DNA of 64,000 nt, taken from the NCBI GenBank assembly GCA_049322215.1, contig JBMORU010000001.1, positions 772,023 to 836,022 of the forward strand, written 5' to 3'. This document shows positions 73-63,321 of the stretch, in pieces. The notes under the pieces were generated by a model, which had not been told where the DNA came from, did no database searches, and saw only the letters and a program-made list of their open reading frames with translations. Position 1 is the stretch's first letter; each line of letters begins with the position of its first letter. The translations under genes and the position numbers were made by a program. The stretch comes from Patescibacteria group bacterium (GTDB taxonomy: Bacteria > Patescibacteriota > WWE3 > UBA101185 > UBA10185).

Positions 73-107
73 TTTCCCACAAATCTTATACATATAAGGA
101 GGACTAA

Positions 108-7956: not shown

Positions 7957-8087
7957 TGAGAAAGGTAAACTGTATTTTTCTCATTACGCTTTTTTTATCC
8001 CTTCGCATCCCAGTAACCCATAGCATTGAACAATTGATGTTTATGTAGTAAAATATCTTAACAAATCAACATAAAAAGGAGAGTCGC

Positions 8088-8519
8088 ATGTTTGACTTTA
8101 GTTGGTTAAGGAAACTTTTTGGTAGTGGAAAAGCAAATAAAATAACTTTTCCCGGGTCCGTTAGTGTTTCGACACAGGTTGGCTTAGGTGCAGAAAAAGC
8201 TCAGCAAATTGCTGGAGTACTGCTAGTAAACCTGCAAATGCATTTTAGCTATACATTGCAAAACCAGCGTGTTATCGCCCAATTACGAAAGGCTTTGGAA
8301 AACCAAGAAAACTACGAGTGGTTACCTCAAAGCTGGTCCCAAATTTACACAACAAAAGATGATCTTGTTTTACTTGGATTTCGCTTGCGTTGGCTTGAAA
8401 GTGGACATCCTTACTTTGATATACGCACTGCACCGAAAGATCGTCTTGCCCTGTCGAGTTGGAACATAAGGCTAAGTTCTGAAATCTACGACCGTTGGAT
8501 TAAAGGACAATTCCGTTAA
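8088..8519 (+). CDS. hypothetical protein (143 aa)
   Basis: RBS aaaaggagagtcgcATG; intrinsic terminator about 8526-8575; GC-richer than backbone. Confidence 0.35.
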   Translation: MFDFSWLRKLFGSGKANKITFPGSVSVSTQVGLGAEKAQQIAGVLLVNLQMHFSYTLQNQRVIAQLRKALENQENYEWLPQSWSQIYTTKDDLVLLGFRLRWLESGHPYFDIRTAPKDRLALSSWNIRLSSEIYDRWIKGQFR

Positions 8520-13419: not shown

Positions 13420-13499
13420 AGTAATAAAATTATTGCTTTTTTACGCCTGCTAAACAAGTCTTATTACAAAAAAAACTGGACATGATATAATTTTTTCGC

Positions 13500-29486: not shown

Positions 29487-29533
29487 TTTTGTAACTATTC
29501 TACTTTTTCCTCTAGGCATGCTAAAATGCTCGA

Positions 29534-30223
29534 ATGGACTGCGGAAAGCTATTTATCGTGCCTACACCAATAGGCAATTTGGGAGATATTTCTCAAAGAG
29601 CACTTAAAGTTTTGTCCGAAGTATCTGTTATTCTTTCTGAAGATACAAGGGAAACGAAGAAATTACTAGATAAATACAACATAAATACCTCTCAAATATC
29701 ATATAGGGATCAAAACCATTCTAAAGTTTTAAATCAAATACTTACACTACTTAGTAGTGGACAAGATGCGGCCTTAGTTTCAGATAGTGGTGCACCTTTA
29801 GTATCAGATCCTGGATTTAAACTTATATCTCACTTGAGAACAGAAAACTACGAAATTATTTCGATACCAGGACCGTCTGCAGCTATATCTGCGCTTATTG
29901 CTTCGGGGTTGCCCACAGATAAATTTAGTTTTTTAGGTTTTTTGCCCAAGAGTAAAGGCAAGAAAAAAGAAATTTTAACCTCTTTTGGTTCTTTAGATTC
30001 TACATTGATAATATATGAATCACCCTATAGAATAGGAAGGTTATTGCTGGATGTTGAAGAAATTTTAGGAAATCGCTTTGTTTGTATTGCGTCAGAAATT
30101 AGTAAAATTCATGAGCAATATTTGTACGGTTCAATTAGTGATGTAACTAAGGAGCTAAGCAACACAAAAGTAAAAGGTGAATATGTTTTATTAATAGCAA
30201 AAAAAGGATTTAAACATGCTTGA
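29534..30223 (+). CDS. rsmI: 16S rRNA (cytidine1402-2'-O)-methyltransferase, tetrapyrrole-methylase fold
   Basis: LFIVPTPIGNLGDISQRALKVL...ILSEDTRETKKLL N-terminal signature of RsmI. Confidence 0.8.
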   Translation: MDCGKLFIVPTPIGNLGDISQRALKVLSEVSVILSEDTRETKKLLDKYNINTSQISYRDQNHSKVLNQILTLLSSGQDAALVSDSGAPLVSDPGFKLISHLRTENYEIISIPGPSAAISALIASGLPTDKFSFLGFLPKSKGKKKEILTSFGSLDSTLIIYESPYRIGRLLLDVEEILGNRFVCIASEISKIHEQYLYGSISDVTKELSNTKVKGEYVLLIAKKGFKHA

Positions 30224-32311: not shown

Positions 32312-33913
32312 TTGCCTACCAAAATTTCCTGCTATACTTTTTTTATGTTACGAAAATGGAACATATTTGCATACATATCGTTGGCCGTTGTAGCTACCTG
32401 GCTTAGGTTAATGAATTTAGGCTATTCTGATTATCAAGGTGATGAAATAAAAGCTTTGTTTTTAATAGATCCCAATGAGTCTGTATCTGAATTTTTGCTT
32501 TCTCAAAGAAAAGGTCCTATTCAATTTTTAATTACATTTTTACTAAAGTTTTTAGACCCAGAATACATGAATAGGTTTTTAATTAGACTTCCTTTTGCTT
32601 TTGCAGGTATTTTTGCTGTCTACTTTTTTTATAAGTTTTTACAACTTCATTTCAACAAAAAAGTATCATTTTATGCCACCTTCTTTTTTGCTACAAATGG
32701 GTTTTTAATTGCTTTTGCACGTATAGTTCAATATCAATCTTTTGTAATACTTTTTATGGTACTTGCGCTTTATACATTTAGTTTGGCTGCAAAAAAAGAA
32801 AATTGGAGTAAGAAAGGTATTTACTTAGGCTTTATTTTTTGGGCGTTATCTATTTTGTCACATTATGATGGTGTATTCATTTTTCCTTTTGTTGTATACA
32901 TTCTTGTTGAGTGGGGAAAAAAGTATGTATTTGATGTAGATGAAAAGTTTGAGCATTTAAAACATTTATTCCTTTCCCTTTTTATTAGTGGTGTACTTAT
33001 GGCTCTATTTTATATTCCATTTATTTTTGCAATTACCGATGCAACTGCAAGTTATTGGCAGGGGAGAATAGTAGGTACAGGGGGCAAAATTGCAAGTTCC
33101 ATAGTTTTGTTTAGGGTATATCAACCTATATATGTTTTTCATATTTATACTTTACTTTCAGTATTTGGTTTAGGTGTTTTGATAAAAGATTATTTAAACC
33201 TAAAAGAGTATAAATCTATAGCGCTGATTACCTGGGCTTTGTTGCCTTTTTTGTTTCTTGAAGTTTTTGTAAGTATTCCGGGAACACATATATATACATA
33301 TTTAATTCCTTTAATGGTACTAATGGGAATAGGTGTAAAGGGCATAGAACGTTTTATGTACTATGTTTCTGGACGACTTGCTCCTATTGCGAAACCTATT
33401 GTGCGCTATATTAATATTGCAGGAATTTTAGTTATTTTTACTTTTATATTTTTACAGGTAAATGCCATATTTGTTGACCATACAGCAGAGTATCCCTGGG
33501 AGCCTGAAAAGTTTTTACTTTGGGAGTTTCACCAACCATCTCCAGCTTTTCATTTAAGTATGTTTGGGTTTCCATATTACAGGCATTGGGATGAAATTGG
33601 CCAATATGTTACCTCTACCGAAAACAATGGCTATTACTCAACTAATGAGCGGAGTTCTATTTCTAGATATCATATTCCATTTAACAAAGATACTGATAGT
33701 GCTGGGCACTTTGTTCACATAATTAACCCGCAAAGCTTCACGCCGAATCCTACACAGGAAAAGGCACAATATTGGGAAGAAAATTACGACCCTGTTAAGG
33801 TTTTTTATAGTGAAGATCCTAATACTCCAGGTAGATTAAGAGAAATTGTGAAGATATATTATATGAAGGTAGGTTCTTTAGATGATTTATTGAAGCAAAA
33901 CCAAATAGAGTAG
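32312..33913 (+). CDS. polytopic membrane protein, GT-C/GT39-like glycosyltransferase candidate
   Basis: WLRLMNLGYSDYQGDEIKALF N-terminal loop similar to 23109-24602; multiple TMs. Confidence 0.45.
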   Translation: MPTKISCYTFFMLRKWNIFAYISLAVVATWLRLMNLGYSDYQGDEIKALFLIDPNESVSEFLLSQRKGPIQFLITFLLKFLDPEYMNRFLIRLPFAFAGIFAVYFFYKFLQLHFNKKVSFYATFFFATNGFLIAFARIVQYQSFVILFMVLALYTFSLAAKKENWSKKGIYLGFIFWALSILSHYDGVFIFPFVVYILVEWGKKYVFDVDEKFEHLKHLFLSLFISGVLMALFYIPFIFAITDATASYWQGRIVGTGGKIASSIVLFRVYQPIYVFHIYTLLSVFGLGVLIKDYLNLKEYKSIALITWALLPFLFLEVFVSIPGTHIYTYLIPLMVLMGIGVKGIERFMYYVSGRLAPIAKPIVRYINIAGILVIFTFIFLQVNAIFVDHTAEYPWEPEKFLLWEFHQPSPAFHLSMFGFPYYRHWDEIGQYVTSTENNGYYSTNERSSISRYHIPFNKDTDSAGHFVHIINPQSFTPNPTQEKAQYWEENYDPVKVFYSEDPNTPGRLREIVKIYYMKVGSLDDLLKQNQIE

Positions 33914-35399: not shown

Positions 35400-36077
35400 A
35401 TGTCTTCTGAAAAAGTTTTAGTTGCAGAAAATTTAGTAAAAACATACACACTTGGCAATACCACTATAAATGCAGTAAATGATGTTTCCCTTTATATAAA
35501 CAGAGGCGAGTTTGTATCTATATTAGGGAAATCAGGGTCAGGTAAATCAACCTTAATGCATATTTTAGGTCTTTTAGATACGCCAACATCTGGAAAAATA
35601 TACTTAAACGGCAAAGACACAACAGATTTAAGCGAAAATCAACTAGCACAAATTAGAAATCAGGAAATAGGCTTTGTATTTCAGTCATTTAACTTACTAG
35701 CACGTACATCTGCTTTAGATAACGTTATTTTACCCTTAAAATATAGTAAAGTTCCAAAAAATGAATGGGAATCACGTGCTCGAGAAATGCTTGAACTCGT
35801 TCAACTTGGAGATCGCTTAAATAATAAGTCGAATGAGCTATCTGGTGGTCAGAAACAACGTGTAGCTATTGCACGTGCGTTAGTCACTAGACCTGCAGTT
35901 ATTTTTGCAGATGAGCCTACCGGAAATTTAGATTCAAAAACCGGAGACGAAATAACAGCTCTATTTAAAAACTTAAATGAACAAGGAAGAACAATAGTAC
36001 TGGTAACTCATGATGATGACCTTGCAAAAATTACTGAAAGAAAAATAGTACTTAAAGACGGCAAAGTTGTGTCATGA
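35400..36077 (+). CDS. ABC transporter ATP-binding protein (MacB/LolD-type)
   Basis: GKSGSGKSTLMHILG Walker A, LSGGQKQRVAIARAL signature, IFADEPTGNLD Walker B. Confidence 0.85.
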   Translation: MSSEKVLVAENLVKTYTLGNTTINAVNDVSLYINRGEFVSILGKSGSGKSTLMHILGLLDTPTSGKIYLNGKDTTDLSENQLAQIRNQEIGFVFQSFNLLARTSALDNVILPLKYSKVPKNEWESRAREMLELVQLGDRLNNKSNELSGGQKQRVAIARALVTRPAVIFADEPTGNLDSKTGDEITALFKNLNEQGRTIVLVTHDDDLAKITERKIVLKDGKVVS

Positions 36078-37255
36078 ACATAAACGAATTATTTCACTCA
36101 GCTATAAAATCTTTAAGCTCTAATAAAGCACGTTCTATTTTAACCATGCTTGGCGTAATAATTGGCGTGTTTTCAGTTGTTACACTTGTTTCTTTAGGAC
36201 GCGGAATTCAAAACTATATAACAGACGAATTTGATCAAATTGGAACTAATTTACTATTTATATCTCCAGGGGAATCTGACATTGGAGATGATCCCGGGAA
36301 AGCATTTACTGCAAACAAGTTAAACCAAAAGCACATAGACTTAATAAATACATATGCGCGCGAATATGTTACTGCAGTTACTCCATTTTTACTTGTTGGA
36401 GAAAATGTTTCATATAAAAACAAAACTTACGCAGGAGAACTAATTGGAATTAATGCCGATTCTTTAGATATATTCAATTACCAAATACATGACGGTAGAA
36501 ACTTCACTCAGTCAGAAGAGTCTTCTAAGGCTAAAGTTGCAATAATTGGGCCATTAATTATTAATGAGCTATTTGGAGCTAAACCTGCGGTAGGTGAAAG
36601 AATTAAAATGGGAGATGAATCTTATTTAGTTATAGGAACTTTTAAAGAAAAAGGGGCAAACTATGATGATCAAATTATTATTCCATATACTTCATTGTTA
36701 GAATCGTTTGATATAGAAAATTACTCAAGCATAATTGCTAAAATAAAAAACCCTGACGAAATAAATTTGGCAACAAGGCAAATTGAAATTGCATTACTTC
36801 GTGACCTAAAAGAAGATGAGTTTACAGTACTTTCACAAAAAGATTTGCTTGAATCGATTCAAGAAATATTAGGTATGCTAACTTTAGGCTTAGGGGCAAT
36901 TGCAGGAATTTCACTTATAGTTGGCGGAATAGGAATTATGAATATTATGTTGGTTTCTGTAACTGAGCGTATTCGTGAAATTGGACTACGAAAGGCTGTA
37001 GGCGCAACGTCAGGGGCAATAGGAATTCAATTTATGTTAGAAGCAGTTTTAATTAGTGTTTTTGGGGGGGCAGTTGGCCTTGGTTTGGGCTATTTAGCTA
37101 CATTGGTAGCACAACAATTTATTAGGGCTGAAATACCGCTGTCTGCAGTTTTCTTGGCTTTTGGCTTCTCATTACTTGTGGGTGTTTTATTTGGTACTTA
37201 TCCGGCTGTAAGTGCAAGTAAAAAAGATCCAATTGAGGCTTTAAGGTACGAGTAG
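36074..37255 (+). CDS. ABC transporter permease, MacB/FtsX family
   Basis: 4-nt overlap with ATPase; same architecture as 10962-12143. Confidence 0.8.
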   Translation: MNINELFHSAIKSLSSNKARSILTMLGVIIGVFSVVTLVSLGRGIQNYITDEFDQIGTNLLFISPGESDIGDDPGKAFTANKLNQKHIDLINTYAREYVTAVTPFLLVGENVSYKNKTYAGELIGINADSLDIFNYQIHDGRNFTQSEESSKAKVAIIGPLIINELFGAKPAVGERIKMGDESYLVIGTFKEKGANYDDQIIIPYTSLLESFDIENYSSIIAKIKNPDEINLATRQIEIALLRDLKEDEFTVLSQKDLLESIQEILGMLTLGLGAIAGISLIVGGIGIMNIMLVSVTERIREIGLRKAVGATSGAIGIQFMLEAVLISVFGGAVGLGLGYLATLVAQQFIRAEIPLSAVFLAFGFSLLVGVLFGTYPAVSASKKDPIEALRYE

Positions 37256-37760: not shown

Positions 37761-37837
37761 GCCTCCATAGCTCAGTGGATCAGAGCGCTCGGCTTCGGAC
37801 CGAGAGGACGGGGGTTCGAATCCCTCTGGGGGCTCCA
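37761..37837 (+). tRNA. tRNA-Arg (anticodon UCG)
   Basis: cloverleaf folded by hand: acceptor GCCTCCA/TGGGGGC, anticodon loop CUUCGGA, T-loop GGTTCGAATCC, encoded CCA. Confidence 0.85.
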
Positions 37838-37893
37838 GTAAAAAATAAGGGCGTTCCCAAGTAAAATTAAATACTTAAGAACACCCAGTTAGG

Positions 37894-38304
37894 TTAAGCT
37901 GGTTCAATTAAAGTAGCAAAAGGTAGTTCAATTGGTTGAGCATTTTTACCTTTTGGTATTACTGTTGCCAGTGTACCGTTTTCCCCAGATTTAACTGCAC
38001 GAATTGTTACAGTAAAGGTATTAGGTTGTAACCCTCTTCCCGGAATAAACTTTCGATACACAATTTTTACTCTTCTTCCAACCACTAAGGCTTTTTTGGC
38101 ACTTTGTGGGCAAAAAAGAATGTTTATTGCTCCACTTGTCACCTTCGCAATAAAATCACCGCACTGTTGAGGTGACCCACGAAAAAGAGGTATTTGCTTG
38201 CGATTAGTAGGGGCAAAGGAAAGTACCGTTTTTAGCTTCCACTTACCTTTGGCTGCTTCTTCTGGACTCTCACTTAATAGAATTACCTTGTGTGTAAAAC
38301 CCAT
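37894..38304 (-). CDS. hypothetical protein (136 aa)
   Basis: strong RBS aaggagacaaacaATG on the minus strand. Confidence 0.4.
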   Translation of the reverse strand: MGFTHKVILLSESPEEAAKGKWKLKTVLSFAPTNRKQIPLFRGSPQQCGDFIAKVTSGAINILFCPQSAKKALVVGRRVKIVYRKFIPGRGLQPNTFTVTIRAVKSGENGTLATVIPKGKNAQPIELPFATLIEPA

Positions 38305-38395
38305 TGTTTGTCTCCTTACTTCAATGTTTTTGGATCGTAATTATACCTATAGTGTTGGTAAAAATAAAGTAACCAAAAGTGTTACACTATTAAGT

Positions 38396-38785
38396 ATGGA
38401 AATGAGTGAACTAGTAAGTAAATTAAAAAATTTTAATACAGAACGAAATTGGGATGCTGACTTGCAGCCTCAAGACGTTGCTAAATCAATAATTATAGAG
38501 GCAGCCGAACTTTTAGAGCACTTTCAGTGGACTGCAACACGAAAAGAAAGAAATCAAGTAGAAATGCTTGAAATTAATAAAACCGAAATTGGTGAAGAAA
38601 TAGCTGATGTTTTTATTTACCTTGCTCGTTTGGCGTACATTTTGAATATAAATATTGAGGAAGCTGTTTTAGATAAAATTGTTAAAAACGCAAAAAAGTA
38701 CCCTGTTGAGGTTTTTAAAAGTAACAAAACTGGGATTGCTAAAAAAATTCATGAAGAACATCGAAAAACAAGGAAGAATAAATAA
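38396..38785 (+). CDS. MazG-like nucleoside triphosphate pyrophosphohydrolase
   Basis: EAAELLEHFQW ... EIGEEIADVFIYLARLA (EExxE...D motifs of MazG/dCTPase); start moved to the ATG at 38396 to avoid overlapping the minus-strand gene. Confidence 0.6.
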   Translation: MEMSELVSKLKNFNTERNWDADLQPQDVAKSIIIEAAELLEHFQWTATRKERNQVEMLEINKTEIGEEIADVFIYLARLAYILNINIEEAVLDKIVKNAKKYPVEVFKSNKTGIAKKIHEEHRKTRKNK

Positions 38786-38825
38786 TTTTATGCTAAAATC
38801 CTTATGCCTTTAACCTTTTTTATGT

Positions 38826-38900
38826 GGGGACGTAGCTCAGTGGTAGAGCACTCGGCTCTTAACCGATTTGTCGTGGGTTCGAATCCCACCGTCCTCACCA
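38826..38900 (+). tRNA. tRNA-Lys (anticodon CUU)
   Basis: acceptor GGGGACG/CGTCCTC, anticodon loop CUCUUAA, T-loop GGTTCGAATCC, encoded CCA. Confidence 0.85.
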
Positions 38901-38996
38901 TCTAAACTTATGTTAGTCCCATAGTTTACAGCACACGAACTTAACATTATAATGCTACATACCTGAAAAACACGTTTTATATAAAAGGAGATAGTA

Positions 38997-39275
38997 ATGT
39001 TATTTCAAGTACCAAATGCTGTTGAGTTACAAGAACCGCTTAAAAAGGTTTTTCCTGTCGGTAACGGCTATCTAAGCTTAGCTTACACTTTAGGTAAGCA
39101 AGCTGGTCAAGAATTGGAACCTGAAGGAGTGCTTCGATGGCTTCTTTTAGGCATAGAGACAGAAGGCATGGGTTTTGGTTTACGATTTACTATACCCAAA
39201 ATCATAAAATATCTGATTTCCAATGAAGAGATGTACGTTGCGGTATTGACCTTATTTAACCAACAAACAAAGTAA
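38997..39275 (+). CDS. hypothetical protein (92 aa)
   Basis: RBS aaaaggagatagtaATG. Confidence 0.35.
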   Translation: MLFQVPNAVELQEPLKKVFPVGNGYLSLAYTLGKQAGQELEPEGVLRWLLLGIETEGMGFGLRFTIPKIIKYLISNEEMYVAVLTLFNQQTK

Positions 39276-39416
39276 TATTCAAAAAGCATAAAAAAAGCAC
39301 CTTAAGGTTTTTTGTGAGTCTTAAGGTGCTTAATACTACCGGCTTTACATCTTTACAAAACTATAGGTCATAGGTTATAATTTTAAAAATCCAATATCAC
39401 AAATAAGGAGTGTGAA

Positions 39417-39818
39417 ATGACCACAAAAAAAGGCCCATTTTACGATGATTATATGCTTAAAGCTGCACACGAATCGGCAACCGGCAATAACTCGTTTTTC
39501 GGCATGCTAGGTAGTATCGGTTTTGCCGGAATGCTTATTGTTTCAGTGCGCAGTATTGGTAGCGAATTGGAAGACATGCTCCCGCACCCAGATAGCATTT
39601 CTGCAGCACAGCTTGTAGACTACTTGCTATTTGAGGGGTTGGAAAATGGCTTTGGGAACGAGCGCTTTGCTGCCTGGTTAGCACATTCAAAGGAGTGTGA
39701 AGCCTGCGAAGTAATGCGCAAAGCTTACGAACGGCATGTTCCAAAACATTATCGCCCCAGCCCGTACATGAATTTCATGGACGCAGTGGACGATATTCGA
39801 GATTACCTCGACGAATAG
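39417..39818 (+). CDS. small HxxxCxxC (ZAS/zf-HC2-like) protein, paralog A of a 7-member family
   Basis: LVDYLLFEGLENG...WLAHSKECEAC; RBS aaataaggag; hairpin terminator 39825-39872. Confidence 0.5.
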   Translation: MTTKKGPFYDDYMLKAAHESATGNNSFFGMLGSIGFAGMLIVSVRSIGSELEDMLPHPDSISAAQLVDYLLFEGLENGFGNERFAAWLAHSKECEACEVMRKAYERHVPKHYRPSPYMNFMDAVDDIRDYLDE

Positions 39819-39824
39819 CACTTA

Positions 39825-39872
39825 GGGTATTTACTGTAGATCAAAAAATCCGCAGTAAATACCCCTTTTTTT
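39825..39872 (+). terminator. intrinsic terminator after paralog A (GGGTATTTACTG ... CAGTAAATACCC + T7); stem begins with the same GGTATTT as the repeat terminators
   Basis: 12-bp perfect stem + T-run. Confidence 0.65.
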
Positions 39873-40197
39873 ATTTTGCTATCATTAGCGAAACATCTTT
39901 CATTCTTTCAAGAAGTATCACTTCAAGTTTAAAGTCATTTGGTTGCTGGTGATTAGGGTAAACTCGTAGAAAAATTATCTGATATGTTCCAAGATCCAGT
40001 TGCTCAAGTCTTTCAATTTCTTGCTGTAATATTGCTGAAACCACAGGAAGCATTTCAATACCTGATTTTTTACCGCAAGTATGTATTGAAAGCCAATCGG
40101 CTAAACGCGCCTGCATTTTAAGCTTTTTTCTTTTTAAATCTCCAATACCAAATGCCATATACCATGTGACATTATTTTTTAGTATGTCTTCTCTCAT
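39871..40197 (-). CDS. hypothetical protein (108 aa)
   Basis: minus-strand RBS aaggagaaacaaATG. Confidence 0.4.
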   Translation of the reverse strand: MREDILKNNVTWYMAFGIGDLKRKKLKMQARLADWLSIHTCGKKSGIEMLPVVSAILQQEIERLEQLDLGTYQIIFLRVYPNHQQPNDFKLEVILLERMKDVSLMIAK

Positions 40198-40291
40198 GTT
40201 GTTTCTCCTTATTTTATTTGAATTGGGACACCATTTTAATACAAAAATGCTTTTTTTTCTTTCCTAAACCTAATAAATTTGAAATAATAAA

Positions 40292-41947
40292 TTGGTGATG
40301 GATAAGTGCCCAAACACAAAATATGTTTTTGTTACCGGAGGAGTAATTTCTGGTTTAGGAAAAGGTACTGCAACTTCCTCCATAGCACTTCTTTTAAAGT
40401 CCGCAGGATATAACGTTTCAGCCCTAAAAGCTGATATGTATTTAAATATTGATGCAGGAACAATGAACCCGGTAGAACACGGAGAAGTTTTTGTAACTGA
40501 TGATGGAATGGAAACCGACCAAGACATAGGTAACTACGAAAGATTTTTAAATAGAGATTTGTCTAAACATAACTACATGACCATGGGACAAATTTACTAC
40601 GATTTAATTACTCGAGAGCGTGCTTTTGAATTTGAAGGAAAAACAGTACAAGGTCATGTGCACGTTCCTGAAGAAATTATAAATAGATTAGAGTTGGCAG
40701 CCAACAAAGATAGGGCAGATATTATGATGGTAGAAGTTGGAGGCACTGTAGGAGAATATCAGAATATTTTATTTTTTGAAGCTGTAAGGCGTTTAAAGCA
40801 AAAGTGTCCAAACAATGTTTACATAATACATTTAGTTTACTTATTAACTCCAAATCATATAGGTGAAATGAAAAGTAAGCCAGCACAAGCTTCAATTTAT
40901 GATTTATACAAGTTGGGCTTAAGCCCGGATATTGTTTTATGCCGAAGTGGTGAATCTATAGATGAAAAAAGAAAAAATACCCTTTCATTTAATACCGGGG
41001 TTCCCCAACATCATATATTTGCGGCTCCAAACATTTCTAGCATATACAAAATACCACAAGTTTATGCTGCACAAGGGCTAGATGACACTTTACTAGACAT
41101 AATGAAACTTGAAAGAAAATCAAATGATTTAATAAAATGGGATGCACAAGTAAAAAAAATGGAAGAGTCTACGAAAAAAGTAAAAATAGGAATTTTGGGT
41201 AAATATTTTGCATCTGGCAGTTTTTCATTAGCGGATGCCTATTTATGCGTTATCGAGGCTTTAAAACATGCGGGGGCTGAGTTGGGGGTAATACCGGAAA
41301 TAGAAGCAATTAATGTAGAAGAATATACAGACGAAGAATTGTCACAACTCGATGGAGTAATAGTTCCTCAAGGGTGGGGAAGCAGAGGCGTAGAAGACAA
41401 AGTTAGGGCAATTAAATATGTTAGAGAAAACAAAGTTCCATTTTTAGGTTTATGCTTTGGCATGCAAATGGCAGTAATTGAATACGCACGTGATATTTTA
41501 GGTTTATCAGAAGCAAACACCCTAGAGGCTAATCCAGATACTCCTGACCCAGTTATTTATATAATGCCCGACCAAGAAAAATACTTAAAAGAAAAAAATT
41601 ATGGCGGAACTATAAGACTAGGTGCCTGGCCATGTAAATTAAGTGAAAATTCTACAATATTAGAGTCTTACAAAAAATATGCCCCAAATATGTTAGAAGA
41701 AAATATAGTTAACGAAAGACACCGCCATAGATACGAAGTTAACAATGATTACAAAGAGAAACTACAAGCAGCCGGGCTGATTATTAGTGGAACTTCTCCC
41801 GATGATAAGCTAGCAGAAGCTATTGAATTGCCAAAAGATAAGCACCCATTTTTTGTAGCTACTCAATTTCACCCTGAGTATAAATCAAGACCCTTGCGTC
41901 CACATCCTTTGTTTTGCTCATTTTTAGAAGCCTGTACAAGTAAATAA
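40292..41947 (+). CDS. pyrG: CTP synthase
   Basis: KYVFVTGGVISGLGKG N-terminus, glutamine amidotransferase GLCFGMQ (catalytic Cys) and HPEY...R C-terminal motifs. Confidence 0.9.
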   Translation: MVMDKCPNTKYVFVTGGVISGLGKGTATSSIALLLKSAGYNVSALKADMYLNIDAGTMNPVEHGEVFVTDDGMETDQDIGNYERFLNRDLSKHNYMTMGQIYYDLITRERAFEFEGKTVQGHVHVPEEIINRLELAANKDRADIMMVEVGGTVGEYQNILFFEAVRRLKQKCPNNVYIIHLVYLLTPNHIGEMKSKPAQASIYDLYKLGLSPDIVLCRSGESIDEKRKNTLSFNTGVPQHHIFAAPNISSIYKIPQVYAAQGLDDTLLDIMKLERKSNDLIKWDAQVKKMEESTKKVKIGILGKYFASGSFSLADAYLCVIEALKHAGAELGVIPEIEAINVEEYTDEELSQLDGVIVPQGWGSRGVEDKVRAIKYVRENKVPFLGLCFGMQMAVIEYARDILGLSEANTLEANPDTPDPVIYIMPDQEKYLKEKNYGGTIRLGAWPCKLSENSTILESYKKYAPNMLEENIVNERHRHRYEVNNDYKEKLQAAGLIISGTSPDDKLAEAIELPKDKHPFFVATQFHPEYKSRPLRPHPLFCSFLEACTSK

Positions 41948-42024
41948 CTACAAGTCTTCAGTTTGGCCTTTAAAAATGTTATTATTCCTTACTTAAACAA
42001 ATAACCTATAAGGAGAGAAACAAA

Positions 42025-42390
42025 ATGTCACTTACCATTAAAGTTATTGTTCCGAAGCAGTTAGTAATGTCACTGCTAGAAAGTCAGGGGCCTTTAAGCC
42101 CATTAGCTGAGTTTATTGTATTCGAGCTTTTTCCTCAGTCTGTTTTAAACGAATTTGCCGAAGGGTTTACTGGGGAAGAGCTTTTGATGTACCTTAAGCT
42201 CGATCATGATTTGGAAGGCCACCGCGATGACACTTGGGATGATTGGTTAAAACACACTGAAGATTGCAAGGTGTGTAAAGCAGTACTGCATGCAATTGAA
42301 GTTAAAGTTGCAGCAAAAAACATGCCTAAAAAGACCATGACTATTGATGAGGCAATTGCTAGATTACGCCCTTTTTTGGAAAATAATTAG
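42025..42390 (+). CDS. small HxxxCxxC protein, paralog B
   Basis: LLMYLKLDHDLEG...WLKHTEDCKVC. Confidence 0.5.
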   Translation: MSLTIKVIVPKQLVMSLLESQGPLSPLAEFIVFELFPQSVLNEFAEGFTGEELLMYLKLDHDLEGHRDDTWDDWLKHTEDCKVCKAVLHAIEVKVAAKNMPKKTMTIDEAIARLRPFLENN

Positions 42391-42415
42391 CAGAAATTTA
42401 GGCGAAGTTATTTTA

Positions 42416-42444
42416 TTGACACACTATAGGGTATGTTATATAAT
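42416..42444 (+). promoter_or_regulatory. consensus sigma70 promoter TTGACA-17-TATAAT for paralog C; spacer contains CACTATAGGGTATG box
   Basis: exact hexamers with 17-nt spacer read directly from sequence. Confidence 0.6.
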
Positions 42445-42495
42445 TCTCGCACCTAAATTGGTAAATCAAATAAACACACAAATAAGGAGATAACC

Positions 42496-42834
42496 ATGTT
42501 TATGCAACTTGGTGGAAACGACGATGAAGGTGGTTTTTTTGAAGAGCTTATGAGAATGGTTACTTTGCGGCGTTTGATGTCCCTGGTATCCCAGACTGAT
42601 CCCAGTTCGATTGAACCAGAAAGAATCGCCCGGCATCTTGCTGTCGAGAAAGAGCTGTTTGGTGATGAAACTTTTGGTGACTGGGTTGCTCACGCAACGG
42701 TCAGAGGCTGCCCCGGCTGTGCTCCCATGTACAAAGCACTGTTGTTGCACATCCCTGCTGAAAAGTTGCCCAAAAATAATATGCCGTACAGCCAGGCTGC
42801 CGACCAGCTCATTGCTCAGTTGAATAAGCTGTAA
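42496..42834 (+). CDS. small H-x5-C-x2-C protein, paralog C
   Basis: WVAHATVRGCPGC; perfect TTGACA-17-TATAAT promoter upstream; repeat terminator downstream. Confidence 0.5.
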   Translation: MFMQLGGNDDEGGFFEELMRMVTLRRLMSLVSQTDPSSIEPERIARHLAVEKELFGDETFGDWVAHATVRGCPGCAPMYKALLLHIPAEKLPKNNMPYSQAADQLIAQLNKL

Positions 42835-42845
42835 TTTCGGACCCA

Positions 42846-42896
42846 GGTATTTGTTATTAGTCACTAAACTATACTAATAGCAAATACCTTTTTTTT
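42846..42896 (+). terminator. intrinsic terminator, repeat copy 1: GGTATTTGTTATTAGT-loop-ACTAATAGCAAATACC + T8
   Basis: 16-bp stem (one G.U) then T-run; 41/43 identical to copy 2. Confidence 0.7.
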
Positions 42897-42986
42897 GTTT
42901 TAAAAGCTTTACTTACCGCTATAGGGCATGGTATTATCCAACAACAAATTCCGCTTTTCAAATAAAAAAATAAGGAGTAGACACAA

Positions 42987-43370
42987 ATGTCAATTTTTAA
43001 ATCACTTCTTGGTGATGATGACGACGAAGAAATTGGTGGTATGACCGTGCATATTATTGGTTTTGGTGAGTCAGATGATGACGCTCCAGGCGGGTTGTTT
43101 GGGCTACTATCGCTGTTAGCCGGAGCCATTGGCCCAAATCCAGAAAACCTTCCAAATCAAAAAATCATTGACCACCTCAATGGCAAGCGCGAAGACTTTG
43201 CTGATAAAAAGGTTGGACATTGGTATTCTCATGCGCTACTTTGCCCCATGTGTCACAGCATGATGGAAGCTTTGGTCGAGCGTCTTGATAGTGAGCAAAT
43301 GCCCGAAGGAGATGAACCTTTTGGCGTTGGTGCTGACATGATCATTAAGGCCCTTAAAGCCCTCAAGTAG
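42987..43370 (+). CDS. small HxxxCxxC protein, paralog D
   Basis: HWYSHALLCPMC; own promoter/RBS; repeat terminator downstream. Confidence 0.5.
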   Translation: MSIFKSLLGDDDDEEIGGMTVHIIGFGESDDDAPGGLFGLLSLLAGAIGPNPENLPNQKIIDHLNGKREDFADKKVGHWYSHALLCPMCHSMMEALVERLDSEQMPEGDEPFGVGADMIIKALKALK

Positions 43371-43384
43371 CTTTCGCCCATAAA

Positions 43385-43434
43385 GGTATTTGTTATTAGT
43401 CACTAAACTATACTAATAGCAAGTACCTTTTTTT
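43385..43434 (+). terminator. intrinsic terminator, repeat copy 2 (GGTATTTGTTATTAGTCACTAAACTATACTAATAGCAAGTACC + T7)
   Basis: near-identical to 42846-42888. Confidence 0.65.
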
Positions 43435-43509
43435 ATCTCAATTTACAGAATGCTATGGGGCATGTTAAAATGTTGAAACAAATACAGATCTAAAAAGGAG
43501 TAGTAAATT

Positions 43510-43911
43510 ATGTGGCGGAAAATTTTGAAGCTACTGAAGATAGAAGCAATACTAGAGCGAAATAATGCAAAAAAAGCAACGTTTCGCGCAGAAGTTACGG
43601 TGCCCGCTAACATGAGTTCTCAGGATTTAGCCTTACTAAAATACATTATGGAAGCTTTGGCGCCAAAACCTGACGACATTACCATTGACGAAATCATTGA
43701 GCACCTTAACGATAAACGAAAATTGTTTAAAGGACAGCAAATGCGCCATTGGTATAGCCATGCAATTGCATGCCCTGTGTGCCGTGCTATGGGAGAAGCG
43801 ATGAGTCGTTTTGTACCTGAAAGCAGTAGACCTGCTGGCCGTATGACGTTTGATGCTGGGGCTGATTTGCTTATTGCACAATTAGAATTGGCAAAAGCTA
43901 AAAACAGCTAA
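43510..43911 (+). CDS. small HxxxCxxC protein, paralog E
   Basis: HWYSHAIACPVC; long hairpin terminator 43920-43969. Confidence 0.5.
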   Translation: MWRKILKLLKIEAILERNNAKKATFRAEVTVPANMSSQDLALLKYIMEALAPKPDDITIDEIIEHLNDKRKLFKGQQMRHWYSHAIACPVCRAMGEAMSRFVPESSRPAGRMTFDAGADLLIAQLELAKAKNS

Positions 43912-43919
43912 TTTAGTAA

Positions 43920-43969
43920 TAAGCATTTACTGTTAATTTCTTAGGCAATTAATAGTAGATGCTTTTTTT
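43920..43969 (+). terminator. intrinsic terminator after paralog E (19-bp imperfect stem + T7)
   Basis: TAAGCATTTACTGTTAATT / AATTAATAGTAGATGCTT then TTTTTTT. Confidence 0.6.
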
Positions 43970-44034
43970 ATATTTGCGTTACTCAGTACCCTATAGTATA
44001 ATAAGCGTAATTTACAACTAAATAAGGAGTTGGT

Positions 44035-44343
44035 ATGAGAGAGTTAATAGACAAACTTGACTCCCCGGTGGTAAGAATAATAACAACATTAAGGACAGAG
44101 CTGTTTGGTTCCCCATCACTTGAAAAAATTATAGCTAACATGGAACCAAACGAAGAGCACTATGGCTCTATGCCTTTATTGTTTTGGCTTATTCACTCCT
44201 TGGGGTGTGTAAACTGCAACTATTACGCAAATTTTGTTTTAAGTCATTTCGAAAAAACCAGTCACAAAGAAATCATGTCAACTAACTTTAGTGTGGTTTT
44301 AGAAATGCTAAGACAAAAAGCTAAAAAAACAAAGGTGAGGTAA
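44035..44343 (+). CDS. small HxxxCxxC protein, paralog F
   Basis: FWLIHSLGCVNC. Confidence 0.45.
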   Translation: MRELIDKLDSPVVRIITTLRTELFGSPSLEKIIANMEPNEEHYGSMPLLFWLIHSLGCVNCNYYANFVLSHFEKTSHKEIMSTNFSVVLEMLRQKAKKTKVR

Positions 44344-44345
44344 AA

Positions 44346-44639
44346 ATGGACGAATCCCGGTTAGAAGCAGTTAAGTTTCGAGTAGCAAATTTTGCTATCG
44401 AAACATTGGCAAAATTGTTTCCCCCAACGTTAGAACGAATTATTAAGCACATGGAAACGTTGCGTGAAAAATACAACGACCGCTTTGTGTTACTTTGGGA
44501 AACAGAAGCCCGAGGCCTTAGTATGTTTTATGCCCGCGCCTTAGAAAACTACCTTGATGCTCATGGGCTCGTAGAACTAGAGGTTGAAGACTTCAACGTA
44601 GCAATAGCCCAGTTAAAAAAGCGAAACAAAACCAGCTAA
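44346..44639 (+). CDS. divergent family member G (motif Cys/His lost), translationally coupled to F
   Basis: similar length and helix pattern, retains the W but lacks the H/C; RBS ggtgaggtaaaaATG; hairpin terminator about 44650-44700. Confidence 0.35.
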   Translation: MDESRLEAVKFRVANFAIETLAKLFPPTLERIIKHMETLREKYNDRFVLLWETEARGLSMFYARALENYLDAHGLVELEVEDFNVAIAQLKKRNKTS

Positions 44640-44726
44640 GTGCCAAGGACACCTGTAATTTGATTTAAACCAAATTGCATGTGTCCTTTTTTTTTGCACT
44701 TATTTGTTATAATCAAACAGTTATTT

Positions 44727-44816
44727 GGGCGGGTGGCGGAAATGGTATACGCGCAACGTTGAGGACGTTGTGGGCTGTTAAAGCCCTTGCAGGTTCAAGT
44801 CCTGTTCCGCCCACCA
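44727..44816 (+). tRNA. tRNA-Leu (anticodon GAG), type II long variable arm
   Basis: acceptor GGGCGGG/TCCGCCC, anticodon stem CAACG/CGTTG, loop UUGAGGA, variable-arm stem GGGC/GCCC, encoded CCA. Confidence 0.8.
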
Positions 44817-44944
44817 AGCTGTTGCTTTGTTTGCAAAGCTTACAGATTGGGGTGCATTAAGAGCGCTAACGATGAATTGCCACCAACGTTATATTCCAAA
44901 CTTTACACATACAAACCCATAACATATAATCATCACATTCCGCT

Positions 44945-46021
44945 ATGAAGCTAATAATATTCGCAGGGGGAACCGGCACAAGATTTTGGCCATTTTCCCG
45001 AAAAAATTATCCGAAGCAGTTTAAAAAAATATTTAATGGTGAATCTACGCTTCAGCTTGCTGTTTCACGTTTAGAAAAAACTTTTGGTACAGACAATATT
45101 TATATAAGTACAAATGAAAACTATGTTTCTATAGTTAAAGAACAGTTGCCTCAAATTTCTTTAGCAAATGTTTTTGCAGAGCCAGAAAAGCGCAATGTAG
45201 GCCCTGCTGTGGGATACTGTTTAACTAGACTTAAAAAGGTTGGCTACAAAGGACCCGTTGCAATTTTGTGGGCAGATCACTTAATAGAAAACGTAGCTGA
45301 ATTTATTCATGCGTTAAAAAAGGGCAAAGATTTAATATACGAAAATCCAAAACGACTTGTGTTTATAAGCGAAGAACCTCGCTACGCTGAAAACAATTTA
45401 GGTTGGATTCACATTGGTAAAAAAATTCAAAAAGGCGTGTATGAGTTTAAAGAGTGGCACTATAAACCACCTTTAGAAAAGTGCAAAGAAATGTTTGACT
45501 CCGGAGAGTGGAAGTGGAACCCTGGGTATTTTATTGTCGACCTTGAATTTACGTTAAGTTTATATGAAAAGCATGTTCCTGAAATATTTAAGGGTCTTCA
45601 AAAAATTGAAAAAGCATTAGGAACTGTTGAAGAAAATAAGGCGATAAAAAGGATTTATCCAAAATTTGAAGCAATTCATTTTGATAGGGCAATTGCAGAA
45701 AGAATTCCTAATAACATGGCTGTTGTGGTAACTGTAAATATGGGCTGGGCTGACCCGGGAACCTTATATGCCTTAAAGGAAGCCAAGGTAAAAAGCAAAG
45801 AGGAAAACTTACAGGAGGGGCTAGTTGTACTACATGAAACCAAAGATTCAGTAGTAATAAATGAAGACAAACACAAATTAGTTGCCGCAGTAAAGTTAAA
45901 CGGAATGGTAGTAGTAAACACGCAAGACGCATTGATAGTTGTGCATAAAGATAATGTTTTAGAAACAACAGACTTGCTGAAAAAGCTGGAAAAAAATAAA
46001 AAGTTTGCAAAGTTTGTTTAG
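44945..46021 (+). CDS. manC: mannose-1-phosphate guanylyltransferase-like nucleotidyltransferase
   Basis: MKLIIFAGGTGTRFWPFSRKNYPKQF N-terminus typical of GDP-mannose pyrophosphorylase. Confidence 0.65.
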   Translation: MKLIIFAGGTGTRFWPFSRKNYPKQFKKIFNGESTLQLAVSRLEKTFGTDNIYISTNENYVSIVKEQLPQISLANVFAEPEKRNVGPAVGYCLTRLKKVGYKGPVAILWADHLIENVAEFIHALKKGKDLIYENPKRLVFISEEPRYAENNLGWIHIGKKIQKGVYEFKEWHYKPPLEKCKEMFDSGEWKWNPGYFIVDLEFTLSLYEKHVPEIFKGLQKIEKALGTVEENKAIKRIYPKFEAIHFDRAIAERIPNNMAVVVTVNMGWADPGTLYALKEAKVKSKEENLQEGLVVLHETKDSVVINEDKHKLVAAVKLNGMVVVNTQDALIVVHKDNVLETTDLLKKLEKNKKFAKFV

Positions 46022-46119
46022 GTTGAATTAAAAGAAACGACTGCTATAATAGCTTTGCTGTTTGTATATAGCACGCGAGAGTGACGCAACTGCGTTGCTA
46101 CCTCTCGCTCACTACGTTT

Positions 46120-46194
46120 GCGAGAGTAGCTCAGTGGTAGAGCGCCTCCTTGCCAAGGAGGAGGCCGCGGGTTCAAATCCCGTCTCTCGCTCCA
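46120..46194 (+). tRNA. tRNA-Gly (anticodon GCC)
   Basis: acceptor GCGAGAG/CTCTCGC, anticodon stem CCTCC/GGAGG, loop UUGCCAA, encoded CCA. Confidence 0.85.
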
Positions 46195-46197
46195 ATA

Positions 46198-46650
46198 CTA
46201 TTGCTTAAAGCTTTTAATAAAATTTTTAAAAAACTTCGCTACTGGAATAGGTCTTATCACTAAATTTTCAACCAAATCTAACGAAACCCATTGCGGTTTA
46301 TAAATATTGCTTGGATTATTAGCCATTTTCTTCATTTCTACAGAATTACCTAGGGTAACTTCACCACTAATATATTCACATAAAAATAGGTTTTGTTCTT
46401 TTCCACTGGTGTGTGTAAATGTGCCTAAAAGTTTTAAGGGTTTAACTTTAATGCAGGTTTCTTCTAAAAGTTCTCTAATTACTGTGTTTTCAAGCGTTTC
46501 GTTTGGTTCAACTTTCCCGCCTGGTATCGAATAGTACTTAGCGCCCTTTTTTTCTCTATACATTAATAAAACTGCATTATCTTTAATAACTATTCCTCGT
46601 GCTGATATTTTTTTCATTGGTAGATTATAACTTAAAGGGAGAGCAACCAC
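46198..46650 (-). CDS. NUDIX hydrolase
   Basis: [24 protein letters not shown] Nudix box. Confidence 0.7.
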
Positions 46651-47327
46651 ACATTATTGTCTTTATCCTCTATAGCGTAGTCTGTAATGCCAACTTTTTT
46701 GAAACCGTTTTTTTCTAAAACTTTTTCCGATGCAATATTACCCCTTTCTGTGTATGCAGTTATACAAATTGGCATAGAAGCCGATATATTTAAAGCTTTG
46801 AAGTAAGCTATTGATTCTCTTAATCCATGGTAAGCAACACCTAGGTTTTCTTTTTGTAAAAAATGTGTACGCGCGTCTATAAAGGAATTACTATCAGACC
46901 AGGCTTTAAAAAGCTTGCAGTAACTTGTTTCAAGTATAAGTGCATGTTTAGGTATGCTTAATTCATTTTTAATACTTTCAGGTAATATTTCATCTTCATA
47001 AAACTGAATCCAACCAACTAATTTATTTTCGGTATCAACAATTGCCCAAATTAATCTAGGATCTTCTTCATGAAAAGGCTTTACATTTAATAAGTAGTCA
47101 ATATCTTCTGCAGAAGAGGGGTCACCTCCCATAAACTTAAGCACGTTTGGGTTTTTGTCCATATCAGTTAGTCTTTGAGTATCTTCTGAGTTAGAGGGAT
47201 TAAACTGTCTTAAAGAATATGGGGAACTAGGGTCACTCTTCCACGGTGTATCTAAATTACCAAAAACTGCATAATTATTGGCAAAATCGTGGAGATTTTG
47301 TTCACTTTGGTTATTGTTAATTTGCAT
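46632..47327 (-). CDS. GNAT-family N-acetyltransferase (C-terminal domain)
   Basis: C-terminal ASEKVLEKNGFKKVG motif typical of GNAT/RimJ-like enzymes; 19-nt overlap with nudix gene. Confidence 0.5.
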   Translation of the reverse strand: MQINNNQSEQNLHDFANNYAVFGNLDTPWKSDPSSPYSLRQFNPSNSEDTQRLTDMDKNPNVLKFMGGDPSSAEDIDYLLNVKPFHEEDPRLIWAIVDTENKLVGWIQFYEDEILPESIKNELSIPKHALILETSYCKLFKAWSDSNSFIDARTHFLQKENLGVAYHGLRESIAYFKALNISASMPICITAYTERGNIASEKVLEKNGFKKVGITDYAIEDKDNNVWLLSL

Positions 47328-47344
47328 ACTACTGTAATAAACCC

Positions 47345-47420
47345 TGGTGGGGAGGGAGGGACTCGAACCCTCATAGCCGGTTTTTCAGACCGGTGCCGTG
47401 ACCATCTTGGCTACCGCCCC
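47345..47420 (-). tRNA. tRNA-Phe (anticodon GAA)
   Basis: reverse complement folds as GGGGCGG...anticodon stem CCGGT/ACCGG, loop CUGAAAA, T-loop GGTTCGAGTCC...CCA; one acceptor-stem mismatch in my hand fold. Confidence 0.75.
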
Positions 47421-47554
47421 TTAGCGAAAACATTTTATCAAGAACCAAAGTATAATACCACACTAAGTAAGTTTAAGACCTATAGCACTAGGAGGAATAA
47501 GACATTTGGTGTATAATTACAAAAGTCAATTTTGATATATCACAAAAGGAGTAC

Positions 47555-50776: not shown

Positions 50777-50892
50777 TAAAACAAACAAAGATTAGGTTAG
50801 TTAATTAGTTAACTGGGTGTGCAAATTTCTTATGAAATCTGTACACCCTTTTTTTTCGGATTTTTTATAAACCTAAATGCTATACTTTTTTT

Positions 50893-51312
50893 ATGGCTAA
50901 AGCTGAAAACTGTGTAATTTGCTGTATAGATTTTAGATTTCAAGAAAAAACATACAATTGGTTATCCCAAAAACACATGTTAGGAAATACTGATGTAATA
51001 AGCATAGCTGGAACCATTAGAGATTTAGTGTTACCAATTGCAGAAAACGATAGAGAAGCACTAATTAAAGAAATTGATATATCAATTAATTTGCACAATC
51101 CTAACAATATATTTGTACTCGACCACCAAGATTGCGGAGGTTATGCACAAGACGACACAATCCCCACAGGCTTAACTTTTAAACAAGATATAGAACAGCA
51201 TAAAAAATTTGCAGTAGAAGGTAAAAAAATATTACAACAACGCTATCCTGACAAAAATATTGAATTTTATTACGAGCCTTTAAATGGAGAAATTATAAAA
51301 CTGGATTTGTAG
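50893..51312 (+). CDS. beta-carbonic-anhydrase-like mini-protein
   Basis: CIDFRF (CxDxR) and DHQDCGGY (HxxCG) zinc-ligand motifs in the beta-CA order; unusually short (139 aa). Confidence 0.4.
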   Translation: MAKAENCVICCIDFRFQEKTYNWLSQKHMLGNTDVISIAGTIRDLVLPIAENDREALIKEIDISINLHNPNNIFVLDHQDCGGYAQDDTIPTGLTFKQDIEQHKKFAVEGKKILQQRYPDKNIEFYYEPLNGEIIKLDL

Positions 51313-52258: not shown

Positions 52259-52403
52259 GTCAAGCTATCATAACAATGTATTTTGAAATTTGTAAGACCT
52301 CTAGCAAAACAGCTTGTTGGTGATATGAAAAAATCTAGTAGAATGAAGAGGAACGAACCCAAAGGCGACTGAAAAGTCGCCTTCTTTAACGTATAATAAC
52401 CCA

Positions 52404-53027
52404 ATGTTTAGAGGATCTAAAACCCTAATTGCAATTACCACCCTTTTTGCTTTTATAGTAGTTTATGTGTTAACTTACTTTCCTTTTTTGTTTACTCCAG
52501 AAAATTTAGTTACTTTTTTAGTTTTGCTATTTGTTGTAACAATTTTTTCTATTTGGTTTAGTTTTTTCTTTCACAAAAAAATTATTAAGGGAGCGCCTTA
52601 TTTACCAAGTACAGATAAATGTATAGAAAACATGCTGTCGGTACTAAACCTAAACAAAAACATGATTGGTGCAGATTTAGGCTTTGGTGATGGTAGGGTA
52701 CTAAGTTTAGTATCTTCAAGAGTAAAAAATTTAGATGGTTACGAAATTAATCCTTTATTGTTTGTTATTGCAAAGTTTAAGCTTTTTATTGCAGACAAAA
52801 AAAATGTTAGTTTGTTTTTAAAAAGTTACTGGAGTGTTGATTTATCAAAATACGATTTTATTATTGTTTTTGGAATTCCACACATTATGGGTGATTTAGA
52901 AGAAAAACTAAAAAAAGAAGCAAAACCTAACTTGCAGGTTGTTTCAAACAGATTCGAATTTCCAAATACCAAAGAAGTAAAAAAAGTAGAGGACATTTAT
53001 TACTACGTTTTTAATTCGCAACATTAA
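52404..53027 (+). CDS. membrane-anchored class-I SAM-dependent methyltransferase (putative)
   Basis: 2 N-terminal TMs then GADLGFGDGRVL (GxGxG) motif. Confidence 0.45.
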   Translation: MFRGSKTLIAITTLFAFIVVYVLTYFPFLFTPENLVTFLVLLFVVTIFSIWFSFFFHKKIIKGAPYLPSTDKCIENMLSVLNLNKNMIGADLGFGDGRVLSLVSSRVKNLDGYEINPLLFVIAKFKLFIADKKNVSLFLKSYWSVDLSKYDFIIVFGIPHIMGDLEEKLKKEAKPNLQVVSNRFEFPNTKEVKKVEDIYYYVFNSQH

Positions 53028-62814: not shown

Positions 62815-63321
62815 TCACGTATTCCAATGAATCCCAACCCTAGTTAGCAAGTACTTAAACAATGCCCATGGGTGTAGTAATCCTTTTAGCCAAAATGACA
62901 CTGCATAACCATACATCTCCTTTTTAATAATACTTTCCTCGTTATTCAACGCATCTTTTATATAAATCGAAATATGCGGTGAAATCATATTAGGTAAATT
63001 TTTCACTTCAAACTGTTCAATAGCTTTACTTTCGTTTGATAAAGTTTTCTCACCACTTATAATCTCGCAAATGAAAGTGTGGTTAATTTTACTTTTCTGT
63101 GAATAAAAATACTCACCAACTTTTTTTACTAATAAAACATTAAACCCTGTTTCTTCAAACACTTCGCGCACCACTGCCTGCTCAGGTGTTTCACCAGTTT
63201 CAATACGACCGCCGGGTAATACCCATATAGGAATATCCCGTCTTTTTACTAATAAAACCTTTTTGCTTTTTTCAAAAAATATAATCCCAAAGCTTCCATC
63301 CATATATAAATTATATCTCAA
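62815..63321 (-). CDS. NUDIX hydrolase
   Basis: GGRIETGETPEQAVVREVFEETGF Nudix box. Confidence 0.7.
   Translation of the reverse strand: MRYNLYMDGSFGIIFFEKSKKVLLVKRRDIPIWVLPGGRIETGETPEQAVVREVFEETGFNVLLVKKVGEYFYSQKSKINHTFICEIISGEKTLSNESKAIEQFEVKNLPNMISPHISIYIKDALNNEESIIKKEMYGYAVSFWLKGLLHPWALFKYLLTRVGIHWNT

Follow-up and report, generated by a model that had tools for sequence, protein, structure and literature searches.

A short asymmetric sequence with the consensus RCTATRGGKY (R-CTATRGG-K-Y, derived from 12 oriented sites and holding ~8-11 informative bases) recurs in or beside the promoters of approximately ten small, lineage-specific genes in the genome of an uncultured member of the Patescibacteria (CPR). 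The best explanation for this box, to which we assign a probability of roughly 0.5, is that it constitutes the recognition site of a sequence-specific DNA-binding protein co-regulating these small orphan genes, probably by repression; the binding, the repression and the identity of the protein are what we infer from the arrangement of the DNA. The box is considered a candidate regulator site because it lies in the promoters of orphan genes and recurs beside the only relative of those genes that was detected outside this genome. A promoter-overlapping, operator-like motif is an ordinary kind of feature; the motif itself is new.

The Patescibacteria (CPR) are uncultured and have tiny genomes. 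To our knowledge they carry few recognisable regulators, and we know of almost no described case of transcriptional regulation within the group, a literature search having returned nothing directly relevant. The DNA considered here (the window) is a 64-kb stretch of chromosome from a MAG of ~1.1 Mb, located on a parent contig of 1,112,869 bp. The box was surveyed over ~73 kb of the 1.11-Mb genome, comprising the window and the 9.3 kb to its right, and no promoter-type box was found in those 9.3 kb. The GC content is ~0.35 across the window and climbs to 0.40 at 42-44 kb. The housekeeping content of the window includes pyrG (40298-41947), glycosyltransferases, a UvrD-like helicase and a type III restriction-modification system, and seven tRNA genes are present.

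Listing the upstream sequences of all ORFs in the window revealed two promoter/leader architectures. A Shine-Dalgarno sequence is absent from most housekeeping genes, which possess a TAnnnT -10 hexamer, often in the form ATGnTAnAAT, that ends 7-9 nt before the ATG; judged from these upstream regions, most housekeeping genes appear to be leaderless. Examples of the leaderless type are located at 13486-13502, 29522-29536, 32333-32347, 50881-50895, 52392-52406 and 63309-63315(-). The second class comprises small ORFs, mostly without a Pfam match, with a -35/-10 promoter, a leader of 25-50 nt and a strong (A)AAGGAG. The box copies, their promoters and the associated genes are listed in Table 1.

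Table 1. Window positions of the paralogous orphan genes, of the box copies with their promoter elements, and of the ACAAAT element in leaders.
Feature	Position	Strand	Sequence and context
Paralog A	39417-39818	+	Orphan paralog
Paralog B	42025-42390	+	Orphan paralog
Paralog C	42496-42834	+	Orphan paralog
Paralog D	42987-43370	+	Orphan paralog
Paralog E	43510-43911	+	Orphan paralog
Paralog F	44035-44343	+	Orphan paralog
ORF108 box	49-59	+	CTATAGGGCAT; -35 TTGATA 43-48, -10 TATAAT 67-72; ORF 108-530
ORF8088 box	8013-8023	-	CTATGGGTTAC, reversed, 2 nt upstream of -35 TTGAAC (8026-8031); ORF 8088-8519
ORF37894 box	38340-38354 (core 38346-38352)	-	CACTATAGG, followed directly by -10 TATAAT (38345-38340)
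ORF38997 copy	38918-38924	-	CCCATAG on the + strand, weaker core-only match, abuts -35 TTTACA (38925-38930); ORF 38997-39275
Paralog A promoter	39352-39381	+	TTTACA, 18-nt spacer, TATAAT; box CTATAGGTCAT 39361-39371
Paralog C promoter	42416-42444	+	TTGACA, 17-nt spacer, TATAAT; box CTATAGGGTAT 42424-42434
Paralog D promoter	42908-42937	+	TTTACT, 18-nt spacer, TATTAT, TGG extended -10; box CTATAGGGCAT 42919-42929
Paralog E promoter	43442-43471	+	TTTACA, 18-nt spacer, TAAAAT, TGT extended -10; box CTATGGGGCAT 43453-43463
Paralog F box	43986-43996	-	CTATAGGGTAC, reversed, abuts + strand -10 TATAAT (43997-44002)
tRNA-Phe/ORF47555 box	47475-47485	-	CTATAGGTCTT, divergent region between tRNA-Phe(-) and ORF47555(+)
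ACAAAT, ORF108 leader	79-84		
ACAAAT, ORF8088 leader	8061-8066		
ACAAAT, paralog D leader	42944-42949		
ACAAAT, paralog E leader	43478-43483		
ACAAAT, ORF917 leader			

All eight instances of the box that were listed in a first-pass annotation of this DNA are present in the sequence, and the box proved to be more frequent than base composition predicts. The exact heptamer CTATAGG occurs 12 times in the whole window (5.5 +/- 2.6 expected), and seven of the 12 fall in intergenic DNA, which makes up 17% of the window and for which 0.85 would be expected. Five copies of the longer form CTATRGGKYAT were found (0.21 expected), in every case on the + strand and within the spacer of a sigma-70-type promoter (ORF108 and paralogs A, C, D and E); these counts refer to a motif that was defined after the data were seen, and four or five of its best copies belong to tandem paralogs and are thus not independent events. 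Additionally, in an unbiased scan of intergenic k-mers, CTATAGG/ACTATAG ranked directly behind the Shine-Dalgarno k-mers. The box is therefore over-represented in the way anticipated for an operator or regulon motif.

The suggested tie between the box and small orphan genes was also upheld. When a core CTATAGG-type match was sought within 110 nt upstream of gene starts, 10 of the 26 genes with a Shine-Dalgarno sequence were positive vs. 1 of the 22 others (Fisher p = 0.006). The sole box-positive gene without a Shine-Dalgarno sequence is a MazG-like gene (38396-38785; Pfam MazG-like, 1.7e-13), which shares a divergent intergenic region with ORF37894. The site near 38350 had been described as lying before this MazG-like gene, which was mistaken; on the minus strand it reads CACTATAGG followed by TATAAT, and it belongs to ORF 37894-38304(-). 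The box is missing from the leaderless housekeeping promoters and from most tRNA promoters of the same genome. At the leaderless rsmI-like gene, a degenerate look-alike of the paralog D box with an extended -10 was observed at 29510-29527 (CTCTAGGCATGC followed by TAAAAT), which may represent chance or a weak site.

Genes outside the paralog family carry the box as well, in agreement with the first-pass annotation: alignment showed no homology of ORF108 or ORF37894 to the family, and ORF8088 lacks the HxxxCxxC motif and has no similarity to the family that is evident by eye. The identity between copies extends beyond the core at these unrelated genes. The ORF108 box is identical to the paralog D box at 11 of 11 positions, the ORF37894 box has ACACTATAGG in common with the paralog C box, and 13 of 16 nt are common to the reverse boxes of ORF8088 and paralog F. 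The paralog F box in turn matches the paralog C box at 10 of 11 positions, and the copy at 47475-47485 has CTATAGGTC in common with that of paralog A.

The paralogs themselves correspond to the NCBI proteins ACOZAO_04300 to ACOZAO_04335 at 100% identity, with pyrG separating A from B; the promoter of paralog B is without a box. The proteins share 16-35% identity with paralog D and an invariant W..H-x3-C-x2-C across A-F (H82, C86 and C89 in paralog D numbering), with a 2-residue insertion in paralog C noted against the HxxxCxxC motif. A profile of the family searched against 1.8 billion representative proteins recovered the copies from its own genome and one outside member, P0007 (E = 3.5e-5), and protein homolog searches found no further relatives of ORF108 or P0007. 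The paralog is confidently modelled as a helical bundle (pLDDT 83), and this predicted fold had no significant PDB match in Foldseek. The H-x3-C-x2-C motif is the zinc-binding signature of ZAS (zf-HC2) anti-sigma factors; it is found in A-F, and P0007 has HAKSCESC. The assignment of the paralogs to the ZAS anti-sigma factors found no support from profile, fold or neighbourhood: Pfam and NCBIfam searches with a cut-off as permissive as E <= 10, a PDB profile search and Foldseek returned no zf-HC2 or anti-sigma match, and no sigma gene adjoins the paralog cluster. The motif stands as a lead.

The outside member P0007 is encoded at positions 96-446 of a 504-bp ENA contig (L081), on which the box recurs. 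The promoter of P0007 itself contains a reversed copy with one mismatch (TTATAGGTCTT), and the next downstream promoter reads TAGACA-GAG-CTATAGGCTGTGG-TAAAAT, with the box positioned 13 nt ahead of an extended -10, in the same register as in paralogs D and E. The box is thus conserved across organisms on this one 504-bp contig, and the 2.35 Mb of other loci that were retrieved contained just 3 instances of the composite of box, TGn and -10. Among 160 pyrG-anchored loci from genome and metagenome collections, with a best pyrG identity of 65%, none had the paralogs or the box.

The alternative that survives best, although we regard it as unlikely, is that the box is a functionless relic that was copied together with its promoter during duplication of the paralog cassette and kept alike by gene conversion. 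Paralogs A, C, D, E and F do form a family that is mostly in tandem, and C (with an alternative -10), D and E hold the box in one 13-nt register. Recent homogenisation of the intergenic DNA is also evident in a 51-nt terminator hairpin with a T-run, which follows C (42845-42895) and D (43384-43434) and is 98% identical between the two, whereas the proteins flanking the C-D and D-E intergenic regions share only 33-35% identity; on sequence grounds this points to gene conversion or a small repeated element. A Logan contig covering F starts at ~43393, inside the second hairpin copy, and displayed no variant arrangement. Directly downstream of the hairpin, however, the C-D and D-E intergenic regions have diverged, and conservation in their alignment is limited to the two promoter hexamers (-35 and -10), the box and the ACAAAT of the leader. 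A relic would also not account for a box at the non-homologous ORF108, ORF37894 and ORF8088 with different offsets, for its inversion at F, or for its persistence next to so distant a homolog as P0007. Its conservation across such large protein divergence (among the paralogs and on L081) speaks in favour of a functional box.

The upstream regions of the unrelated genes ORF8088 and F (7988-8026 and 43961-43999) also resemble each other, with 72% identity across a 39-nt stretch that spans the T-run of the terminator and the reverse box; the genes flanking the two regions have no evident similarity. The combination of terminator and box at the unrelated gene pairs 7600/8088 and E/F might represent portable regulatory cassettes.

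The promoters of the box genes are of the sigma-70 type, with -35 and -10 hexamers near TTGACA/TATAAT that are 16-18 nt apart and that match the consensus at 12/12 positions for C, 11/12 for A, 10/12 for E and 9/12 for D. The -10 has the form TAnnnT, frequently with a TGn extension, and every -10 hexamer sits 33-52 nt ahead of a start codon preceded by AAGGAG. As reported in the first-pass annotation, the box overlaps these promoters, lying in the spacer or abutting the -35 or -10 at most copies. The more precise location given there, in the spacer or just upstream of the -10, applies to ORF108 and paralogs A, C, D and E, where the box is in the spacer, and fails for the copy assigned to 47490, which is really at 47479-47485 and outside any spacer. 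That copy is ~27-33 nt upstream of the ORF 47555 -10 in reversed orientation, or, read forward, 28 nt upstream of a TATTAT preceding tRNA-Phe(-).

The position of the box relative to the -10 had been put forward as a check and turned out not to be conserved, with offsets of 6, 7, 13, 13, 15, 15, 18 and 28 nt. At ORF108 the box begins 0 nt after the -35 and 18 nt ahead of the -10; the corresponding distances are 3 and 15 nt for paralog A, 2 and 15 nt for C, and 5 and 13 nt for D and E, and the ORF37894 box starts 7 nt before its -10. The box thus shifts between 0 and 5 nt from the -35 and between 6 and 18 nt from the -10 of these promoters, while the -35/-10 spacing stays at 16-18 nt. Reversed copies are found at paralog F, ORF8088, ORF38997 and P0007 on L081; as a group, reverse copies are only weakly above chance (~4 vs. 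1 expected), and those of ORF8088 and ORF38997 were chosen by their core match.

This geometry bears on a second alternative, somewhat less probable than a relic of duplication, in which the box would be an intrinsic promoter element marking leader-bearing accessory genes, read as a spacer contact by the housekeeping holoenzyme, by an alternative sigma factor or by a sigma-appropriating co-factor. Such an element would fit the confinement of the box to one promoter class, its placement exactly 13 nt before the -10 and beside TGn at D, E, the next-gene promoter on L081 and C (if the -10 of C is TATATA), and the merging of its 3' part, CATGK, with the ATGn extended -10 frequently seen in this genome. 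The full range of offsets described above argues against it, as do the three to five copies that are inverted or upstream of the -35 and the presence of sigma-70 hexamers that are already complete, including the perfect pair at C. A trans-acting factor is preferred over a polymerase contact because the box shifts in position against the fixed polymerase elements and occurs in both orientations within one gene class, and because neither the leaderless housekeeping promoters of this genome nor the pyrG loci of its nearest relatives contain it; the absence of the box from most tRNA promoters likewise disagrees with an intrinsic element.

For the preferred reading of a regulator site, which makes the common regulator suggested in the first-pass annotation plausible, a factor would bind the box and thereby co-regulate the small orphan genes of the class with leaders and strong ribosome-binding sites. 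The bound protein would compete with RNA polymerase, and repression by occlusion would be the most likely outcome because most copies are located within the spacer or directly next to the -10 or -35. The form of the site counts against an operator, since it is short and has no dyad or direct-repeat symmetry of the kind usual for bacterial operators: across the 12 oriented sites the only symmetry is the 6-bp palindrome CTATAG, and the base before the core is R, whereas a CCTATAGG dyad requires C, which leaves the flanks asymmetric. No DNA-binding domain (HTH or other) was detected in the neighbouring small ORFs, which also have no Pfam or PHROG function. ORF 917-1159 (80 aa), which is beside ORF108 and looks HTH-like by eye, can speculatively be named as a candidate regulator.

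Operators of the LacI, LexA and phage CI type are usually dyads of 14-20 bp that overlap sigma-70 core promoters. The box resembles these classical repressor operators in its location in or beside the -35/-10 of several promoters and in its flexible placement, but it differs from them in that its dyad symmetry is limited to the 6-bp CTATAG and a second half-site is not evident. MerR promoters have over-long spacers of 19-20 bp and palindromic sites; the box is similarly positioned between the -35 and -10, and a MerR-type spacer operator was nevertheless excluded by spacers of 16-18 bp and an asymmetric site. The closest working analogy is provided by the stoperators of L5 gp71/TipsytheTRex (cluster A mycobacteriophage), a non-palindromic 13-mer that is repeated many times in promoters and in the short gaps between genes, at which a monomeric repressor silences small genes (PMC9283540). 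The box is likewise short, asymmetric and present in many copies in promoters and intergenic gaps. Unlike the L5 sites, which are strictly oriented relative to transcription and lose their function when reversed (PMC9283540), at least three copies of the box are reversed; its informative core is shorter (~8-11 nt), it has no phage context, and no repressor gene was found with it.

A product of chance or base composition is improbable to a far greater degree than either alternative above. The resemblance of CTATAG to a -10 hexamer (TATAGT, TATAAT) means that TATA-rich promoter DNA will yield such strings, and some intergenic CTATAG occurrences are in fact plain -10 hexamers of the form cTATAGT (54882, 56294); the post hoc definition of the motif and the weak significance of the reverse core-only matches also fit with this account. 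The GG(G/T)YAT extension, however, is unlike a -10, and 0 of 100 dinucleotide-preserving shuffles reached the five copies of CTATRGGKYAT that were observed. The recurrence on L081 would be very unlikely by chance, given the rarity of the composite pattern in the other fetched loci.

Phage-type promoters conserve ~17-23 bp, including a specificity region at -12 to -8. The box has the string (CA)CTATAGG(G) in common with T7, K11 and SP6 promoters (cf. CACTATAGG(G)), CACTATAGGG being the 3' end of the T7 promoter, and CACACTATAGGG of paralog C matches 12 consecutive bases of what we take to be the K11/T7-type consensus. A promoter read by a single-subunit RNA polymerase of the T7, K11 or SP6 type is still practically discounted, and the resemblance is coincidental, as the first-pass annotation thought probable: the 12-17 bp upstream of CTATRGG are unconserved between copies (information content is near zero upstream of box position -1, where only a -35-like hexamer recurs at variable distance), the box is embedded among genuine -35 and -10 hexamers, the orientation of some copies is opposite to that of their gene, no single-subunit polymerase domain was found among the window proteins scanned, and no phage similarity was detected. 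Several other candidates were rejected: a sigma-B-like GGGTAT -10 has no properly spaced GTTTAA, a phase-variable G tract would comprise only 2-4 G, an invertible promoter or integron attC disagrees with cassettes that each have their own promoter and T-run terminator and no flanking inverted repeats, and a restriction-modification site would leave the confinement to promoters unexplained.

Regarding origin, no phage similarity was found by megablast of the window, by DNA and protein searches of phage collections or by a scan of viral contigs, and a phage or plasmid-like origin of the orphan genes was not found. The description of these genes as acquired is tentative; it is based only on their GC of 0.40 vs. 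~0.35 and on their orphan status. Five tRNA genes (tRNA-Arg, Lys, Leu, Gly and Phe) are scattered among the orphan genes at 37761-47420, and the ORF38997 promoter begins 25 nt after tRNA-Lys. This layout recalls tRNA-linked insertion sites, but no integrase was seen.

Other features of the window were observed in passing. The type III restriction-modification operon (56327-62507) encodes an N6/N4 methylase, an OLD-like ATPase/TOPRIM protein and a Res helicase-endonuclease, and past the right end of the window (L082) are a MerR-domain-fused C5 DNA methylase and an Mrr-like nuclease; the operon and these genes together form a defence cluster. Positions 11209-11463 and 36754-37008 are inverted copies (255 nt, 75%), and ORF 10962-11279(-) appears to be a truncated version of the C-terminal portion of the ABC-transporter permease encoded at 36074-37255. 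Confident coding sequence is sparse in the surrounding 11.3-13.5 kb, where pseudogenes may be present. Additionally, 17831-17854 and 38350-38373 are 96% identical over 24 nt, the former in a NADH-dehydrogenase-like ORF fragment (~17.8 kb) and the latter in the divergent intergenic region with the ORF37894 box.

The leaders of the orphan genes have a further element in common. ACAAAT follows the -10 by 6-7 nt in ORF108, D, E, ORF8088 and ORF917, and ACAAATA is over-represented in intergenic DNA (17 vs. 5.7 expected). From its position in these leaders, ACAAAT probably represents a conserved start site of transcription or the first bases to be transcribed.

Combined, the leaderless core genes and the box-bearing orphan genes with leaders suggest two expression regimes within one minimal genome. 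A more far-reaching possibility, which we consider doubtful, is a dedicated CPR programme, separate from the leaderless core, in which a possibly monomeric factor reads an asymmetric 8-11 bp site and switches orphan genes on and off. If this is true, the programme would include the tandem HxxxCxxC proteins, which are zinc- or redox-sensor-like, and could serve, for example, host attachment or stress. The box defines a candidate regulon of orphan genes, provides a bait for capture of a putative regulator, and allows proteins of unknown function to be grouped by shared control.
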